DNA of 32,000 nt, from the NCBI RefSeq assembly GCF_000341395.1, contig NC_020304.1, forward strand, positions 2,790,001-2,822,000, in the 5' to 3' direction. The position numbers and the translations under genes were made by a program. This stretch comes from Desulfocapsa sulfexigens DSM 10523 (GTDB lineage: Bacteria; Desulfobacterota; Desulfobulbia; Desulfobulbales; Desulfocapsaceae). The notes below the pieces were generated by a model. It worked only from the letters and a program-made list of their open reading frames with translations. It searched no databases and was not told where the DNA came from. Shown one piece after another: positions 26,307 to 32,000 of this stretch; positions within the stretch are counted from its first letter, which is position 1; the number at the start of each line of letters is the position of its first letter.

Positions 26307-27245
26307 TTAACTGCCTGTATGAAAATATTTCATTTCATACACACTCGATCTGACTTGTCCGGTCTCAAGGGAGGGACCAACCGGCAATGAGGTAGTACCA
26401 TCGAAAAACGCTGGCAATAAATGGCAAAACTCCAGAGTGTCGTACACCGCACGCTCTTTCATTGCTTGTAGTGTGGTGATGTGTGGCTCATTGGTTACCG
26501 TGTCAAAGTAAGTTAATTCACCCGTCACGTCTGATGGAGTATAGTACTTGTGCTGATGGTACGAAAGTTGTTTGATCGCTTGTAAACTTTTGGGGAGCAG
26601 TGGTTCGCTAAGAGCCATAATATTGACCAAAAAACCATTGATAAAGAGTTTGCGCGCATAATTAAAATTTTTGTAAGATCTTAATATGTCATCAATAATC
26701 AATCGCACACCATATTTCTTGTATTCTATACCGTTGGAGAAAATCACCTCTAGATACTGCCTGGCATCTTTGTACATGGCACTGATATCATATGCCTTGT
26801 GGCTATTTGCATCTTTCTCCAAGCAGCAGTCGATTACACATTCGATTTCGCGATGTTTTTGCACAGCAATCTTTCGTTTAACAGGATCTGTGTCGTAAGA
26901 GTTCCCGGTCATATAATAGACGAAAGGGTGAAAATTGATATCGACGAAGATATGGGAAGCAAAACCGATTGTAAAGGCTCGTACTACCGCCTTATCAGGT
27001 TTGTCGGCTTGGTTGTACAGATTAATCAGTCCCTCGACAAAATAGAAACTATCTTCTTTGTTGGAACCATGAAACTTGTCAGGCAACCTAGCCAGTATTT
27101 CTTTGTCCCTTTTGATGTAGTAATAGAGCACATCATGAAAAACAGCACCTAGCAAGACAACGTTTCTGTATTCAGGTCTGATATTGATCGTTCTATGTTT
27201 GCACACTTCATCGGCTATCAGCCAATGGGTCACTTCTTTTGGCAT
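26307..27245 (-). CDS. zinc-dependent phospholipase C family-like protein (PLC / S1-P1 nuclease fold), cytoplasmic
   Basis: There is no signal peptide. His/Asp-rich motifs are spaced as in the bacterial 'zinc dependent phospholipase C' family: THWLIADEV near the N-terminus, LLGAVFHDVLYY, KFHGSN, and GFASHIFVDINFHPFVYY. The assignment is by motif pattern only. Confidence 0.5.
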   Translation of the reverse strand: MPKEVTHWLIADEVCKHRTINIRPEYRNVVLLGAVFHDVLYYYIKRDKEILARLPDKFHGSNKEDSFYFVEGLINLYNQADKPDKAVVRAFTIGFASHIFVDINFHPFVYYMTGNSYDTDPVKRKIAVQKHREIECVIDCCLEKDANSHKAYDISAMYKDARQYLEVIFSNGIEYKKYGVRLIIDDILRSYKNFNYARKLFINGFLVNIMALSEPLLPKSLQAIKQLSYHQHKYYTPSDVTGELTYFDTVTNEPHITTLQAMKERAVYDTLEFCHLLPAFFDGTTSLPVGPSLETGQVRSSVYEMKYFHTGS

Positions 27246-27331
27246 CAAGTACCCTTTTATAATGACATTATTTGTACATTTTTCATCTGGTCCCTTTTAC
27301 TTCACGTATGCGCGAAAAGCTTTTTTTGTCA

Positions 27332-27440: not shown

Positions 27441-28565
27441 CTATTGTTCTTTGAACTCTCTACTGTGTAGATGTTGCAGGAGTTGCTCCGGGCTATTGAT
27501 AAATTGCTCAACATCTTTGCTGAGAGCGAAGAATTCATCGTTAAACCCTGAGATAAGGTTACGCTGTTCCCATCGTGAAATGTAGTAGTCTATAAGTTCA
27601 GGGAGTTTTGAGTAAATGGTCTGTTCCGGCCACGGGTCAATAAATGAAGATCTTCTGAGTTTGCTGTTGTCCAGAGTCTGTGTTTTATAGAACTGGCTTA
27701 AGAACATAAGTTCTGCTGGCATTTTAGTGTAAATTCCAATCCTTAACAGTCCTTTGAGTAACCTTTTCAGAACAGCTGAGCCAAATTGTGCAACCGGGAG
27801 TGGCAGGAAGATATTTCTTGGTTTTTTGACGCCCAGAAAACTTTTTATTGTCTGGATCAGGTGTACAAGCTCAACAGGTTCTGAATCGACAAAATTATAG
27901 AATTCCCCGGTGAATTCATCGCGGTTGATGAGGGCATGGTGGATGAAGTATGGGACTTTTTCAGCATTGGAATAGGAGTGTTGAACTCCTTTAGCCGTTA
28001 AGAAAAGTGGCATTGCCTGATCGGCAATCGAGTGAAGCAGGCGATGGAAACCCTGGGTTTTGTGGTCGTGTTGTCCATAAACGATACCGAGCCTGATGGC
28101 TGTGAAATCGAGCCCTTCCTTCTCATACATATGCTGGAGTGTTCTCTCGCTCATGAGCTTTGACTTCGCGTAATTGGAAAGAGTCGGGCTAAGGTTAAGT
28201 TGTTGCTCCTCTGTGAGGAGTCTTCCCATGGGGAGAACAGCAGCTGAACTGATGTGAATATAAGGAATCTTGAGGTTAAGGGCAATCTTTGCCAGATTGA
28301 TACAGCCCAGATAATTGATTGTATAGGCGAGTTGTGGATCGGCGTCAATCGCTGCAATTGCGGAGTTAATTATAAAATCTGGCTTCCAGCGTCTGGTGTA
28401 GCGTTCTATGTCCTTTTTGCTGCCAAGGCTCATAGTTTTCGAATTAGGCGAAAGGATTTCAATGTTATTACCGCAGTACGATTTGAAATAATGGACCATG
28501 GTTCCACCAATCAGACCGGTACCGCCAACAATGATGCCCCGCTTTTTTTTTGATTGCCGTGTCAT
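27441..28565 (-). CDS. NAD(P)-dependent epimerase/dehydratase family (extended SDR) with a C-terminal extension
   Basis: GIIVGGTGLIGG Rossmann motif, SSAAV...YAKSK (Ser...YxxxK catalytic set), and about 100 extra C-terminal residues with no motif I recognise. Confidence 0.7.
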   Translation of the reverse strand: MTRQSKKKRGIIVGGTGLIGGTMVHYFKSYCGNNIEILSPNSKTMSLGSKKDIERYTRRWKPDFIINSAIAAIDADPQLAYTINYLGCINLAKIALNLKIPYIHISSAAVLPMGRLLTEEQQLNLSPTLSNYAKSKLMSERTLQHMYEKEGLDFTAIRLGIVYGQHDHKTQGFHRLLHSIADQAMPLFLTAKGVQHSYSNAEKVPYFIHHALINRDEFTGEFYNFVDSEPVELVHLIQTIKSFLGVKKPRNIFLPLPVAQFGSAVLKRLLKGLLRIGIYTKMPAELMFLSQFYKTQTLDNSKLRRSSFIDPWPEQTIYSKLPELIDYYISRWEQRNLISGFNDEFFALSKDVEQFINSPEQLLQHLHSREFKEQ

Positions 28566-28729
28566 TATGCTTTGAGTATCAGGTATCCTGAGTTACTGTC
28601 ATTGAAGAATGATGGGAACTGTTCCTGATCATCTCTTGTTTAACAGAAGAAAATTAAAAAAAACAGGTGAAAGGAATTAGTAAGCCTGCCATACCCATTT
28701 TTTATACACTGTACCCTACAGGATCAACA

Positions 28730-29413
28730 ATGAAAATCATGATCTGTTTTCTGGTTGTATTGTTTTTAGCTGCCCCTATCTTTGCCATGGATACTCCTCA
28801 GCAAACGAGAAGCTGTCATTGCTTCCAGGATAGAGTTTTTGATCCGGATCGAAAATTTGCTGCCGACAAGTACCTGCTTACCACCAGCTTTAACTCCTTT
28901 ATCTCTGCAAACTTTCATATTTCTAAAAGTCAGATTGTTATGATGAAAATGAAAGGGGGAGTGGATCCGGACGATCTACTTATCGGTCTTTTTGTCGCTC
29001 GGATTTGTGATGTAGAGGTCAACAGTCTACTGGCCATTTTGGACAGTGGTGGAACCTGGAAGCAGATCCTGACGTCTCGGAGTCTCAAAAAAAATGAAAA
29101 AAATAAAAATTTATTGAATACTCTTCTTGCTGCTATTGATACTGAAGAAGCGGCAGTGGAGGTGGTCACCGATCAGTTGGTAAAAGAATTTTTCAGAGTG
29201 TCGGATTTAGAGATTGCATCGTTACGTGAGGAAGGTGCAACAGGCCGTGAAATTGTACTTATTTACCTGATGGAGCGCTATGGGAAAACCGATGCGACCG
29301 CAGCTGATATCCTGAGTATGTACACCAAAAAGAAAATGAGCTGGGGAGAGATCGCCAGTTATTTTGGACTTACTCCTAAAGAGACCGGGAAACTTCTTCA
29401 GAATCAGGGTTGA
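28730..29413 (+). CDS. secreted hypothetical protein (signal peptide, CHC motif, duplicated helical module)
   Basis: ATG 28730 is preceded by AGGA. MKIMICFLVVLFLAAPIFA is a Sec signal peptide, and the mature protein starts MDTPQQTRSCHCFQDR. The track ORF begins 63 nt upstream at GTG, but that extension has no signal-peptide logic. Confidence 0.6.
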   Translation: MKIMICFLVVLFLAAPIFAMDTPQQTRSCHCFQDRVFDPDRKFAADKYLLTTSFNSFISANFHISKSQIVMMKMKGGVDPDDLLIGLFVARICDVEVNSLLAILDSGGTWKQILTSRSLKKNEKNKNLLNTLLAAIDTEEAAVEVVTDQLVKEFFRVSDLEIASLREEGATGREIVLIYLMERYGKTDATAADILSMYTKKKMSWGEIASYFGLTPKETGKLLQNQG

Positions 29414-29417
29414 GGAA

Positions 29418-30224
29418 TTACACCTGATCCAGCAGTTTTGTTCTGTGTAGATATTCTAGAGCGTGCCAAAGGTCGTCTTCGCTATGTGGTTCAAGAGTTA
29501 CCAGTGGATGAAGATTGTTTACCGCCAGGAAATCGAAAAGACCTTTGAAGTCGAATTTTCCCAGCCCCAGCCCCAGGTGCTGGTCTTTTTCTCCATTATT
29601 ATCATGAAGATGAAGCTGGCCCAACCAGGGAGAAAGTATGGGGAGCCAGTTCTGCCACGGTGTTTTAGCAAAACTCATAAGATGTCCCACATCAAGACAG
29701 AATCGTGCGTTTTCTGAATCTAATTTTGTAAGAACTGTTTCATGGGCATCGGGACTGGTTTCATAGGTGTTTTCAAGCATAAGAATGCAATCCTGCTCCG
29801 TTGCAATCCCGAGCAGTTCCTGCCAGGTTTCGGAAGCTGCCAGAAGCCACTCATTCCATTTGTACCCCTGTTTGTTTTCCTCAAAATTTAAATGGCAAAC
29901 CATGGATTTTGGCTGGAAAATAGTAATCAGCCGAGCTGCCTTTCTTAGTTTGTTGCGGCTGGCATCAAGGATTTTCGGATCCAGGGCTCCGGGAGCAAGG
30001 TCAAAAAAAGGTGCGTGGAGGGTACAGGAAAGTCTGTTATTCTTCAGTGTGTGGGCAATTTTTTTGAATTCATCCTCTGATTCTTCGTAGAGACAAAGAC
30101 CTTCCAGGCCAATTTCAGGTTGAATGCCATGTTGCAGAAAGAGATCAAGGTAGCGATTCTTTAACTCATACCAGGGGGCATTTACGAAACAGCGTGGGGT
30201 GATATGTTTGTATTTTGCTTCCAT
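29418..30224 (-). CDS. xylose isomerase-like TIM-barrel protein (sugar phosphate isomerase/epimerase; AP endonuclease 2 superfamily)
   Basis: The motif series is typical of this fold: TLHAPFFDL, ILMLENTYE, CLDVGH, HLHDNNG...DQHLGLGLG, and VTLEPH. ATG 30224 is 1 nt after the upstream stop. The alternative GTG 30236 would overlap the upstream gene by 11 nt. Confidence 0.72.
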   Translation of the reverse strand: MEAKYKHITPRCFVNAPWYELKNRYLDLFLQHGIQPEIGLEGLCLYEESEDEFKKIAHTLKNNRLSCTLHAPFFDLAPGALDPKILDASRNKLRKAARLITIFQPKSMVCHLNFEENKQGYKWNEWLLAASETWQELLGIATEQDCILMLENTYETSPDAHETVLTKLDSENARFCLDVGHLMSFAKTPWQNWLPILSPWLGQLHLHDNNGEKDQHLGLGLGKFDFKGLFDFLAVNNLHPLVTLEPHSEDDLWHALEYLHRTKLLDQV

Positions 30225-30225
30225 C

Positions 30226-31839
30226 TTAACGTTCACTCAGGTATTTGATCATTTGGCTCATACTTAATTTAATGCTCGAAGGTCCGGAGCGAATATAGAA
30301 ATCCTCCTGCCTGCCTATGGAAAGGAAGACAGGACGACGAACCCGTTCACATTCAACAATACAAATTGTTTTGTCTTTGATGATGGCAATTTTGAGATGA
30401 ATAAATCTGGTGAACTCTGCACCAATATGGGTGTTCAGTAGGTTTTTGAAGTGTAGTCGACACTTGTCTTCATTGTCAAAATTATCTGCCTCTGTGCCAA
30501 GAATTGTTCCGGAATCATCCACTCCGATGAGAAGAATCCCCCCATCGCTGTTCATAAATCCGACTACGGTTTTCAGCCATGCTACCTCAATTTCTTTTCC
30601 TGGTCTTCCGGAATTCAGGTTGGTTCGCATGGTGGATTTGAACTCAAGAGTGGTGGATTCACCGGCTCTGATGAGTGCTGCGACTTCAGTTTCATAGCTC
30701 TGAGTGTTTATATGCTGCTGTGGCAAATCCTTTAACTGATAGCTGTACTTTCGAACAAGAAGGACTGTCATTAGAACAGCAAGTAGAAAAATAGAGCCAA
30801 CAAGCAGAGCGAAGCGAATCCACTGCCGATGCAGGTCGGAAAAAATATCATCTGCAGGGATGATCACTGCGACCCAGATATCGGGGTTTGATTCGTGGAG
30901 CTGGCTAAAGCCAAGCCACCAGTTTTTTCCGCCATTCCTGATGGAGAGTGGTTGGGTGGTCTGTTGTCTGTTTGTTCTGAGCAGGGTTCCCACTGTACTG
31001 AGAAGTTGTTCTGAAAGACTGACTTCTTCGACAGAGGCGCTAACTATTTTGTTTAATCGGTCTTTTCCTGAACTATTCAAGGGTATTCCTTCTTTGTCGT
31101 AGAGTACAATACGGCCGTTAGGGGTAATCTGAAGGTCTTCCAGAAAGGTCATCAGGCTTTGTGTGGTGAAAGAAACACCTGAGACATGGTTACCGTCCTT
31201 GCTGTTACGTATCTTCCACTGAAGGCTTGCTGTGATGACAGTATCTCCAGTCGTTTTCTGAAGATAGGGTTCTGTCATGAAAAATTTGGTGCTGGAAGGG
31301 GTGAGCATGGCACCCTGGAACCAGTTAGCAGTGGACATGGTGTAGCGTCTTTCGTTTACGGTCTCCTGGCCTTCAATCTTTCCGTCAACAAGGCGGGAGG
31401 TTGTGGCGTTACTTTTGTGGGATTCATCTACAAGCCATTCGTCATTGTGGTGAGAGAGTTGGAAACAGTTTTCGTTTGTATCGGCGATGGATATGGAATG
31501 GATGGTTTGTTGAATTTCCATAAGTGCCTGGAACTGGCTGGCGAGAATCTCAGGAGTCTGCATGTTGAACAGCCCGGCTTCCCCCCATTTTCCCAGTATT
31601 CTTAAAATATTTGTAAGTGGATCTGTATAAGATTGGAAATGTGCTGCGACCAGAAGGTTAGCCTTGCCTATAATAGAGGTTGAAACCTCACGCTGGGTTT
31701 TAACACCCTGGAGCATCACTATGGTGAGAATGGCACCGGATATAACGAAAAGGATAAGCAGGATATCACGAAGAAGACGTCTTTTGATATTTCGTGGACA
31801 TCCCCGTATCAGGCCGGAAAGTGTTGAAAATATAGGCAT
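30226..31839 (-). CDS. membrane protein: TM, periplasmic Cache-like sensor, TM, cytoplasmic AlbA_2 (Schlafen-type) domain
   Basis: TM1 at aa ~24-44 and TM2 at aa ~340-362. Between them is a Cache-like pattern (NWFQGA...TEPYLQKTTGDTVITASL...GVSFTTQSLMTFLEDLQITPNGRIVLYDKEG). After TM2 comes AALIRAGESTTLEFKST...VVGFMNSDGGILLIGVDDSGTILG...FYIRSGPSS, which matches the AlbA_2 hallmark (E-x4-EFK ... GG-hhhhG-V-D-D-G). Confidence 0.7.
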   Translation of the reverse strand: MPIFSTLSGLIRGCPRNIKRRLLRDILLILFVISGAILTIVMLQGVKTQREVSTSIIGKANLLVAAHFQSYTDPLTNILRILGKWGEAGLFNMQTPEILASQFQALMEIQQTIHSISIADTNENCFQLSHHNDEWLVDESHKSNATTSRLVDGKIEGQETVNERRYTMSTANWFQGAMLTPSSTKFFMTEPYLQKTTGDTVITASLQWKIRNSKDGNHVSGVSFTTQSLMTFLEDLQITPNGRIVLYDKEGIPLNSSGKDRLNKIVSASVEEVSLSEQLLSTVGTLLRTNRQQTTQPLSIRNGGKNWWLGFSQLHESNPDIWVAVIIPADDIFSDLHRQWIRFALLVGSIFLLAVLMTVLLVRKYSYQLKDLPQQHINTQSYETEVAALIRAGESTTLEFKSTMRTNLNSGRPGKEIEVAWLKTVVGFMNSDGGILLIGVDDSGTILGTEADNFDNEDKCRLHFKNLLNTHIGAEFTRFIHLKIAIIKDKTICIVECERVRRPVFLSIGRQEDFYIRSGPSSIKLSMSQMIKYLSER

Positions 31840-31844
31840 AGTGA

Positions 31845-31859
31845 TTGTTTCGTAAACAA
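31845..31859 (-). promoter_or_regulatory. 6-3-6 perfect inverted repeat in the leader of the Cache-AlbA_2 gene
   Basis: TTGTTT CGT AAACAA at 31845-31859, 6 nt upstream of ATG 31839. No Shine-Dalgarno is recognisable in that leader. Confidence 0.3.
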
Positions 31860-31896
31860 ACAGATTGGCAGAGAAAACCTTAACAGGTTCAGGAAA

Positions 31897-32000
31897 CTAT
31901 TCCAGCTCACTGGTGCATAAGCGCAGGGAGATATAGCCAGCGATCCCTGCAAACAGCGATGCCGCAAGAATACCAATTTTTGCATTGAGCAGATGCTGTG
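31897..32000 (-). CDS. 3' end of an unidentified membrane-protein gene (runs off the window)
   Basis: The minus-strand frame is open from the window edge to TAG (31899-31897). It encodes ...QHLLNAKIGILAASLFAGIAGYISLRLCTSELE*, a hydrophobic helix-like C-terminus. It is too short to identify. Confidence 0.3.
   Translation of the reverse strand, partial: QHLLNAKIGILAASLFAGIAGYISLRLCTSELE

Follow-up and report, generated by a model that had tools for sequence, protein, structure and literature searches.

What might a bacterial transmembrane receptor do when the domain on its cytoplasmic side is a Schlafen-type AlbA_2 domain? The question is raised by a 537-residue protein encoded in a 32,000-nucleotide stretch of Desulfocapsa sulfexigens DSM 10523 (hereafter the window; all coordinates are in its numbering). 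Cache domains, the commonest extracellular sensors of bacteria, are known to act on kinases, chemotaxis modules and cyclases. The family to which the window protein belongs joins two known kinds of protein, the Cache receptors and the sensor-fused Schlafen nucleases. Judging from sequence and predicted structure, we would read the protein as a dimeric Schlafen nuclease that is gated by an extracellular ligand and acts on RNA, most likely tRNA, and we put the probability of this reading at roughly one half. Its open reading frame (ORF) runs from 30226 to 31839 on the reverse strand, stop codon included, and the product is 100% identical to AGF79066.1 / WP_015404752.1. An earlier interpretation of the same DNA (the original prediction) had placed this ORF, and that of an adjoining TIM-barrel gene (29418..30236 at full extent, reverse strand), at the same positions. 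The architecture, lack of classical output, acidic residues and tight gene junction that it described have held up; its two-gene module and its abortive-infection or toxin flavor have not.

A Kyte-Doolittle scan (19-residue scanning window) found exactly two hydrophobic segments in the protein, transmembrane helices TM1 (residues 25–43, score 2.68) and TM2 (residues 344–362, score 2.86). Because six Lys/Arg residues lie among the first 24, the N terminus is predicted to be cytoplasmic, residues 44–343 (300 amino acids) periplasmic and residues 363–537 cytoplasmic. Conservation is reported here for an alignment of 154 family members, no two of them identical, which come from several phyla (Desulfobulbales, Desulfoluna, Gammaproteobacteria and Myxococcota). 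The receptor gene and its parts are as follows.

30226..31839, reverse strand: receptor gene, dCache-TM-AlbA_2 (ORF, 100% protein match and 475 homologs, mostly full length)
31768..31839, reverse strand: N-terminal cytoplasmic segment, residues 1–24, with the 6 Lys/Arg and the motif P15-R-N-I-K-R-R-L-L-R24-D25
31711..31767, reverse strand: TM1, residues 25–43 (also a helix in the AlphaFold model)
30811..31710, reverse strand: periplasmic double-Cache (dCache_1-like) sensor, residues 44–343 (PDB profile match, Foldseek and motif mapping)
30754..30810, reverse strand: TM2, residues 344–362 (within a continuous helix, 329–364, in the model)
30664..30753, reverse strand: cytoplasmic juxtamembrane linker, residues 363–392, with the conserved V-R-K-Y365-S-x-Q-L-K-D-L-P373-Q-Q followed by a helix (380–392), and no HAMP
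30229..30663, reverse strand: Schlafen-type AlbA_2 domain, residues 393–537 (PF04326, domain model, Foldseek and conservation)
30637..30660, reverse strand: predicted catalytic motif E394-S-T-T-L-E399-F-K401 (E-x4-E-x-K), invariant in 154/154 and with Cash/Avs9 spacing
30514..30516, reverse strand: codon of D442, the predicted catalytic Asp of a G-V-D-D motif, invariant in 154/154

The sensor was identified at the level of the family. Against the window protein alone, the Pfam dCache_1 hidden Markov model (HMM; PF02743) scored 30.4 bits, below its cut-off of 45, so this check of the predicted Cache domain fell short, but the family profile and the structural matches support it. A profile of 27 homologs matched dCache ligand-binding domains in the PDB with expectation values (E) of 3e-12 to 1e-6 (best 7w0w_A, 3e-12; PctA, 3e-8), and PF02743 is listed in precomputed Pfam for the window protein and many homologs. 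The full-length AlphaFold model (predicted local distance difference test, pLDDT, 81.5) matched Tlp3, PctA, Mlp24 and PscC over ~290 columns in Foldseek, with target-normalized TM-scores of 0.65–0.69 for the sensor. Profile, Foldseek and hydrophobicity scan together give a double-PDC fold that has a long stalk helix and lies between the two TM helices. After TM2, Pfam detects no HAMP, HisKA, MCPsignal, GGDEF or other classical output at E ≤ 0.1, and NCBIfam returned no match for the 537-residue protein. The predicted order of TM, Cache, TM and AlbA_2, with no HAMP, kinase, MCP or GGDEF output, is therefore what we found. About 30 residues, not ~20 as first proposed, link TM2 to the GES motif.

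The identity of the cytoplasmic domain is clear from an HMM search and a Foldseek comparison, two kinds of analysis that the original prediction had proposed. SLFN_AlbA_2 (PF04326) scores 72.7 bits on residues 394–525 (cut-off 25.3, E 4.9e-20) and spans profile positions 1–117 of 118. Modeled alone, the domain reached a pLDDT of 92.5, and its best 21 Foldseek matches in the PDB are all Schlafen-fold structures: SAMD9 (7ksp, 9o0d), SLFN5/11/12/13/14, DIP2311 (3lmm) and 2kyy. Their E values run from 2.8e-5 to 2.1e-3, and the next match falls to E 0.33. By domain model and Foldseek, the domain thus has the alpha+beta AlbA_2 fold akin to the nuclease C-lobe of SLFN proteins.

The residues expected of a nuclease are conserved without exception. 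E394, E399, K401 and D442 are each invariant in all 154 homologs, as are D452, D458, H471 and R517. Position 441, which the original prediction had included with E394, E399 and D442 among the acidic residues, may be D, N, A or E, so three of those four residues stand at the sequence level and D441 does not. The profile-to-sequence alignment sets 'FMNSDGGILLIGVDD' on SLFN14 'FANTQGGYVLIGVDD', whereby G-V-D441-D442 falls on G-V-D248-D249 and D442 corresponds to SLFN14 D249. The E-x4-[ED]-x-K spacing equals that of E17-D22-K24 in CbCash, and the spacing of E14/D19 in Avs9. In CbCash this triad binds Mg2+, and the enzyme cleaves tRNA (PMC13462974). The active site of Avs9 consists of E14, D19, D45 and E65, and D45N abolishes toxicity (PMC12680541); D32A abolishes tRNA cleavage by RzAgo (bioRxiv 10.64898/2026.05.29.728809). 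Judged by these aligned positions, the window protein carries the conserved acidic active site of active Schlafen nucleases (SLFN11/13/14, SAMD9, Cash, Avs9 and RzAgo), and purifying selection on its predicted catalytic residues is strict. The AlbA_2 domain has a mean column identity of 0.77 and the sensor one of 0.41, a difference that would suit an enzyme with a universal substrate.

dCache receptors generally signal as dimers, through TM2. Single-lobe prokaryotic SLFN domains, for their part, are tRNases that become active only once a sensor-driven change of oligomer pairs them, as in RzAgo (bioRxiv 10.64898/2026.05.29.728809) and in Cash filaments (PMC13462974). In RzAgo, two SLFN domains must pair for tRNA to be cut, and the pairing rebuilds the two-lobed cleft of mammalian Schlafens (bioRxiv 10.64898/2026.05.29.728809). 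Because dCache receptors are dimeric and single-lobe SLFN domains need pairing, a switchable AlbA_2 dimer is the most economical model. The receptor would act as a dimer, its periplasmic double-Cache domain would bind a small extracellular ligand, and the two TM helices would pass the signal inward together with the conserved juxtamembrane segment. Two motifs, one at the N terminus (P15...R24-D25) and one after TM2 (R-K-Y-S-x-Q-L-K-D-L-P-Q-Q), are the probable juxtamembrane relay; L22, R24 and D25, the last being the first residue of TM1, are at least 97% conserved, and linker residues Y365 and P373 are 99% conserved. Ligand occupancy would then shift the packing of the two cytoplasmic AlbA_2 domains, so that a composite active cleft is assembled or disassembled. 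Cleavage of RNA, most likely of tRNA, would in this way be switched on or off, and a cue from outside would directly adjust translation or growth.

The closest known relative in design is Cash (CbCash; PMC13462974), in which one prokaryotic Schlafen/AlbA_2 nuclease domain with the N-terminal catalytic E-x4-[ED]-x-K motif is likewise fused directly to a small-molecule sensor, and in which activity is gated by a ligand-induced rearrangement of the oligomer. Cash, however, is soluble and lies in defense loci, and it binds cA4 from type III CRISPR through a Rossmann-like Csx15 sensor domain in the cytosol. The window protein instead has a periplasmic dCache domain between two TM helices, housekeeping surroundings and a nuclease that is predicted. 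SLFN-pAgo (RzAgo) and Avs9/SAMD9 resemble it in that their AlbA_2 effectors have a single lobe and share its acidic active site (PMC12680541; bioRxiv 10.64898/2026.05.29.728809). Their sensors are different (Argonaute together with a GHKL ATPase in the one case, STAND NTPases in the other), and they are cytosolic, defense-linked and toxic once activated, with no membrane or extracytoplasmic sensor.

Several observations weigh against a nuclease of this kind. The top structural match of the C-terminal domain is the DNA-bound SAMD9 domain (7ksp). Not every AlbA_2 domain that binds DNA also cleaves it, and public names of the family speak of a 'transcriptional regulator' or 'DNA-binding'. Finally, linker residues 371–379 have a pLDDT below 50 in the AlphaFold model and are predicted to be disordered, which would be awkward for rigid piston or rotation signaling and would leave room for proteolytic release or partner docking.

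The DNA-bound match and the public names would favor a membrane-tethered regulator whose AlbA_2 domain binds DNA or mRNA uncut and whose Cache ligand alters transcription, as in ToxR/CadC-type one-component regulators. This non-catalytic nucleic-acid binder is the main rival to a ligand-gated nuclease, and a defense role and a two-gene module are less likely; even so, we consider it unlikely. Its best structural support, besides 7ksp, is the high rank of DIP2311 (3lmm) and the presence among the Foldseek matches of SLFN5 N-domain structures that are described as DNA/RNA binding. The public names are generic: 'ATP-binding protein', 'RNA-binding domain-containing protein' and, in keeping with the rival, 'putative DNA binding domain-containing protein' and 'HTH domain-containing putative transcriptional regulator'. 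Pfam, however, finds no helix-turn-helix (HTH) or other DNA-binding domain in the protein, and the names are thus carried over from other architectures. Their source is probably the bacterial AlbA_2 'ATP-binding protein' family (DIP2311, 3lmm; RecG-related N-domain, 2kyy), which shares the fold (query-normalized TM-score 0.54–0.60). In DIP2311-type proteins a GHKL-like ATPase and an HTH come after AlbA_2. These proteins are soluble and have AlbA_2 at the N terminus, whereas the window protein has neither ATPase nor HTH; an AlbA_2 plus GHKL supradomain has been reported (bioRxiv 10.64898/2026.05.29.728809). A pure binder would also not need the acidic/Lys catalytic set, the whole of which is invariant in 154/154; conservation of ~77% across phyla would be unusual for a transcription factor with genome-specific targets; and no conserved target gene adjoins the receptor.

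The architecture is widespread. When one genome per species was scanned with a pattern, relatives turned up in 554 genomes, with Desulfocapsa and Desulfobulbaceae, Desulfopila, Desulfoluna, Competibacteraceae, Sedimenticola, Chromatiales and Myxococcota among the taxa. The C-terminal domain, used as the query of an exhaustive HMMER search, gave at least 427 clusters (50% identity) with E ≤ 1e-30. Of the 150 best clusters, nearly all are 500–560 residues long with AlbA_2 at the extreme C terminus, which ties this AlbA_2 subfamily to the dCache-TM architecture. The shorter proteins of a representative search (216–385 residues) are mostly N-terminally incomplete metagenome fragments of the same architecture. 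Two of them look different, and each may be real or an assembly artifact: P0208 (216 residues) resembles a single TM anchor joined straight to AlbA_2 without a Cache domain, and P0127 (385 residues) looks chimeric, its TM2-AlbA_2 part being fused behind an N-terminal region of unrelated sequence. The original prediction had not recognized the architecture as described, and our search of the literature likewise turned up no description of Cache-TM-AlbA_2. Neither 'Cache' nor 'transmembrane' occurs in the main text of the prokaryotic Schlafen/AlbA_2 papers searched, and the Cash survey lists only defense-linked clusters (PMC13462974). The Cache-Schlafen receptor family is large, conserved, chromosomal and unstudied.

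What the receptors may sense can be approached through the dCache_1 chemoreceptors and sensor kinases (PctA, Tlp3, Mlp24; PMC8915833), which share the sensor fold and the TM1-dCache-TM2 topology. Outputs in that class include HAMP plus MCP, HisKA/HATPase and GGDEF/EAL; the window protein has a Schlafen domain and no HAMP. The dCache_1AA motif (AA_motif) comprises Y121, R126, W128, Y144 and D173 in PctA numbering; in PctA, binding is 61-fold weaker with R126A and is lost with D173A or D173N (PMC8915833). At least 75 of the 154 family members carry [YF]-R-W-[FY]-Y-D at PctA positions 121/126/128/129/144/173, among them gammaproteobacterial, Desulfoluna and myxobacterial proteins. Given this complete amino-acid-binding pocket, about half of the family probably senses amino acids. 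The corresponding residues of the window protein are Y166, A171, W173, F174, Y192 and S223. The motif's Arg and Asp (R126 and D173) are absent, so that the full AA_motif seen in about half of the family is not present here, and since D173 is conserved in amine sensors too, the protein fits neither the amino-acid nor the amine motif. The pocket of the Desulfocapsa clade as a whole reads Y-A/S/T-W-F/Y-Y-S, with both charged ligand contacts gone, and its members probably sense something other than amino acids because the Arg and Asp have been lost.

An indirect route to the sensor is hinted at elsewhere in the family. In three loci (L030, L045 and L038), a gene for an SBP_bac_3 solute-binding protein lies 57–61 nucleotides (nt) upstream of a receptor with a degenerate Cache pocket (L030:7040-7924). 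In L030 the motif positions read FSIYFF, with no Trp, Arg or Asp. Receptors with this neighbor may sense indirectly, by way of a periplasmic binding protein.

Taken further, the nuclease reading would make the family tRNases that are gated by outside ligands and put to a non-immune, housekeeping use, with an amino acid as the ligand in many members through the dCache_1AA pocket, and with no phosphorylation, second messenger or transcription factor in between; the membrane-anchored nuclease would thereby set the tRNA pool and the level of translation. We advance this fuller scheme tentatively and at rather less than even odds.

A housekeeping use is at odds with what has been described for bacterial Schlafens. 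The prokaryotic Schlafen nucleases characterized in the work that we found are all defense effectors that cut tRNA under the control of sensors in the cytosol, with cA4 in Cash, Argonaute/ATP in SLFN-pAgo and STAND in Avs9 (PMC13462974, PMC12680541, bioRxiv 10.64898/2026.05.29.728809). A survey also reports bacterial AlbA_2 clades enriched near defense systems (PMC12680541). By analogy, an envelope cue of infection could trigger the Schlafen nuclease of the receptor, deplete tRNA and arrest growth, as in Cash, Avs9 and SLFN-pAgo, and PADLOC did give the receptor a weak match to the SLFN end of its pAgo model (E 0.0011). The gene's surroundings make such an anti-phage or abortive-infection sensor improbable. 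The window holds core housekeeping genes (prfA, prmC, an EPSP-synthase-family gene, a PilS/PilR-like pair, tatC, dxs, ispA, xerD, hslVU, a GGDEF protein gene, dnaE and nhaA), together with genes for a pentapeptide protein, a MotA/MotB-like pair, a phospholipase-C-like protein and a short-chain dehydrogenase/reductase (SDR) epimerase. PADLOC on 149 distinct neighbors of the receptor found no defense family matched by more than two of them, and full-length family members are absent from 72,556 records of plasmids and 50,697 of phages. The AlbA_2 proteins in these records all have other architectures, with 25–41% identity to the C-terminal domain. The lack of plasmid and phage members and of a recurrent defense neighbor argues against a typical defense-island gene, and the synteny is stable over a genus-level clade. 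Half of the family, moreover, keeps a pocket for amino acids. The abortive-infection or toxin flavor of the original prediction accordingly finds no support in the context.

If the nuclease reading is true, the receptors would represent a new output class for bacterial transmembrane signaling, in which a Cache sensor is wired straight to a Schlafen nuclease, and theirs would be the first non-defense role proposed for bacterial Schlafens. Because half of the family keeps a well-understood amino-acid pocket, the step from ligand to nuclease is directly testable. Such receptors would offer a clean system for how ligand binding controls Schlafen activation.

Receptor contexts were compared in 80 fetched loci, in which the Desulfocapsa clade was defined by a receptor identity of at least 52%. 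No family-wide conserved partner of the receptor was found among them. In the window, the receptor lies between two genes on the same strand.

31897..32000, reverse strand: 3' end of nhaA, a Na+/H+ antiporter gene (frame ends ...LRLCTSELE*; the ortholog in locus L001 matches PF06965 with 490 bits)
29418..30224, reverse strand: TIM-barrel gene, AP_endonuc_2 / xylose-isomerase-like, 268 residues (AGF79065.1 / WP_015404751.1; PF01261 match)

The nhaA gene, on the upstream side, is cut by the window edge and ends 57 nt before the receptor ATG. In 19 loci, two of them more distant (L033 and L074), NhaA directly precedes the receptor. L026 and L031 instead have a CPA2 Na_H_Exchanger+TrkA_N gene 2–3 nt upstream of the receptor and a Usp gene downstream. 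A cation/proton antiporter is thus found immediately 5' of the receptor in three subclades (window 31897-32000; L001:6521-7954; L026:4373-5992; L031), and this adjacency may hint at a connection with ion or pH homeostasis. In seven gammaproteobacterial loci (L049:7015-13092, L070, L075, L076, L077, L079 and L080), the receptor is flanked by two squalene/phytoene-synthase-family genes, hpnC/hpnD-like, with an amine-oxidase (HpnE-like) gene next and then a gene that we take, from the look of its sequence, to encode an SDR. The synthase flanks and the HpnE-like gene place the receptor inside a squalene or hopanoid biosynthesis cluster. Other recurrent neighbors, presumably UvrC, a putative CCA-adding enzyme and aconitase as read from their sequences, add to the list of antiporter, Usp and squalene-synthase genes that speaks against a defense role. 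Scans of the window for tRNA genes and Rfam families gave no matches, and hence no RNA partner or tRNA gene lies nearby. A promoter and terminator scan of 28500–32000 returned counts not above those of shuffled sequence.

Does the gene on the other side of the receptor belong to its mechanism? The junction reads CGT TAA G ATG GAA: the receptor's TAA (30228–30226) is separated by 1 nt from the ATG at 30224, the start used in NCBI's 268-residue product. The tight junction of the original prediction is therefore real, and the TIM gene is almost certainly co-transcribed with the receptor in D. sulfexigens. Also as predicted, its product is an AP-endonuclease-2-fold TIM barrel, matching AP_endonuc_2 (PF01261) with 78.8 bits. 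Its best NCBIfam match is CbiR (NF041277; 85.7 bits, equivalog cut-off 105), and the nearest solved relatives are the uncharacterized MJ1311 and TTHB071. We considered and rejected an assignment as CbiR itself, a phosphodiesterase of cobamide remodeling in the same AP endonuclease 2 / xylose-isomerase-like superfamily. The score lies below the cut-off and no cobamide genes occur in the window or the orthologous loci, whereas 80% of cbiR homologs adjoin such genes (PMC7733943). Unlike cbiR, the TIM gene has Mla-like ATP-binding cassette (ABC) and MotB/MotA-like genes as conserved neighbors.

The original prediction saw in this junction a two-gene module, in which the receptor and a TIM-barrel phosphodiesterase or isomerase act jointly, for instance with the TIM enzyme processing the ends made by the nuclease. 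The 1-nt gap and the closeness to a phosphodiesterase, CbiR, are what such a module would predict, and within the Desulfocapsa clade the TIM gene does lie 3' of the receptor in 17 of 18 informative loci. The gaps there nevertheless vary between about 1 and about 615 nt, L005 has an additional ORF in between, and L006 lacks the TIM gene. Beyond the clade, it follows the receptor in none of 59 loci of more distant homologs, even with an HMM at E ≤ 10. Conversely, TIM orthologs of 59–63% identity occur in other Desulfobulbales without the receptor. There the order is MlaE-MlaF-MlaD-ABC_trans_aux-TIM-(OmpA/MotB-like)-(MotA/ExbB-like), or in others Peptidase_S11 followed by TIM-MotB-MotA, and in L084 an auxiliary lipoprotein gene overlaps the TIM gene by 4 nt (L084:2290-9234; related loci L085, L086 and L081–L083). 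The Desulfocapsa clade has the same Mla genes upstream, with DUF3124, NhaA and the receptor lying between the auxiliary gene and the TIM gene. This upstream synteny (Mla genes, DUF3124, NhaA) is conserved in the clade to the same degree, a sign of general synteny and not of a specific receptor-TIM coupling.

At the level of the family, the two-gene module is refuted by a condition that the original prediction itself had set, a TIM-barrel neighbor that is not kept beside homologs, and joint action of the two proteins in any form seems very unlikely. Since adjacency is limited to one clade and the orthologs do without a receptor, the tight junction reflects local gene packing in a syntenic block, not a conserved module. 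The TIM gene is a lineage-specific neighbor with no part in the receptor mechanism. Its Mla and MotB/MotA neighborhood suggests an envelope- or lipid-related role for the enzyme rather than one in nucleic-acid metabolism.

Other genes of the window attracted our attention in passing. On the reverse strand between 23076 and 26163, a MotB/OmpA-like gene (399 residues; MotB_plug below the Pfam cut-off, plus OmpA), a MotA_ExbB-family gene (267 residues) and a pentapeptide-repeat protein gene stand in a row upstream of dnaE. A Zorya-like reading of the MotB/MotA-like genes was rejected: the PADLOC ZorB matches look like generic OmpA/MotB ones, and the MotA-like protein and the other neighbors have no PADLOC matches. 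Between this pair and the TIM gene with its convergent neighbor lie a Zn-dependent phospholipase-C-like gene (26307-27248, reverse strand), which had no tblastn match in the 80 related loci, and a gene for an atypical SDR epimerase of 374 residues (27441-28565, reverse strand), which is syntenic in the clade. The convergent neighbor (28667-29413, forward strand) is a 248-residue ORF that begins with a signal-like hydrophobic segment and has no Pfam or NCBIfam match. It meets the TIM gene across a gap of 4 nt and is kept in the Desulfocapsa clade (46–72% identity in 7 loci). The MotB-before-MotA order is unusual, and the 267-residue MotA_ExbB-family protein is 74–90% identical across Desulfobulbales.

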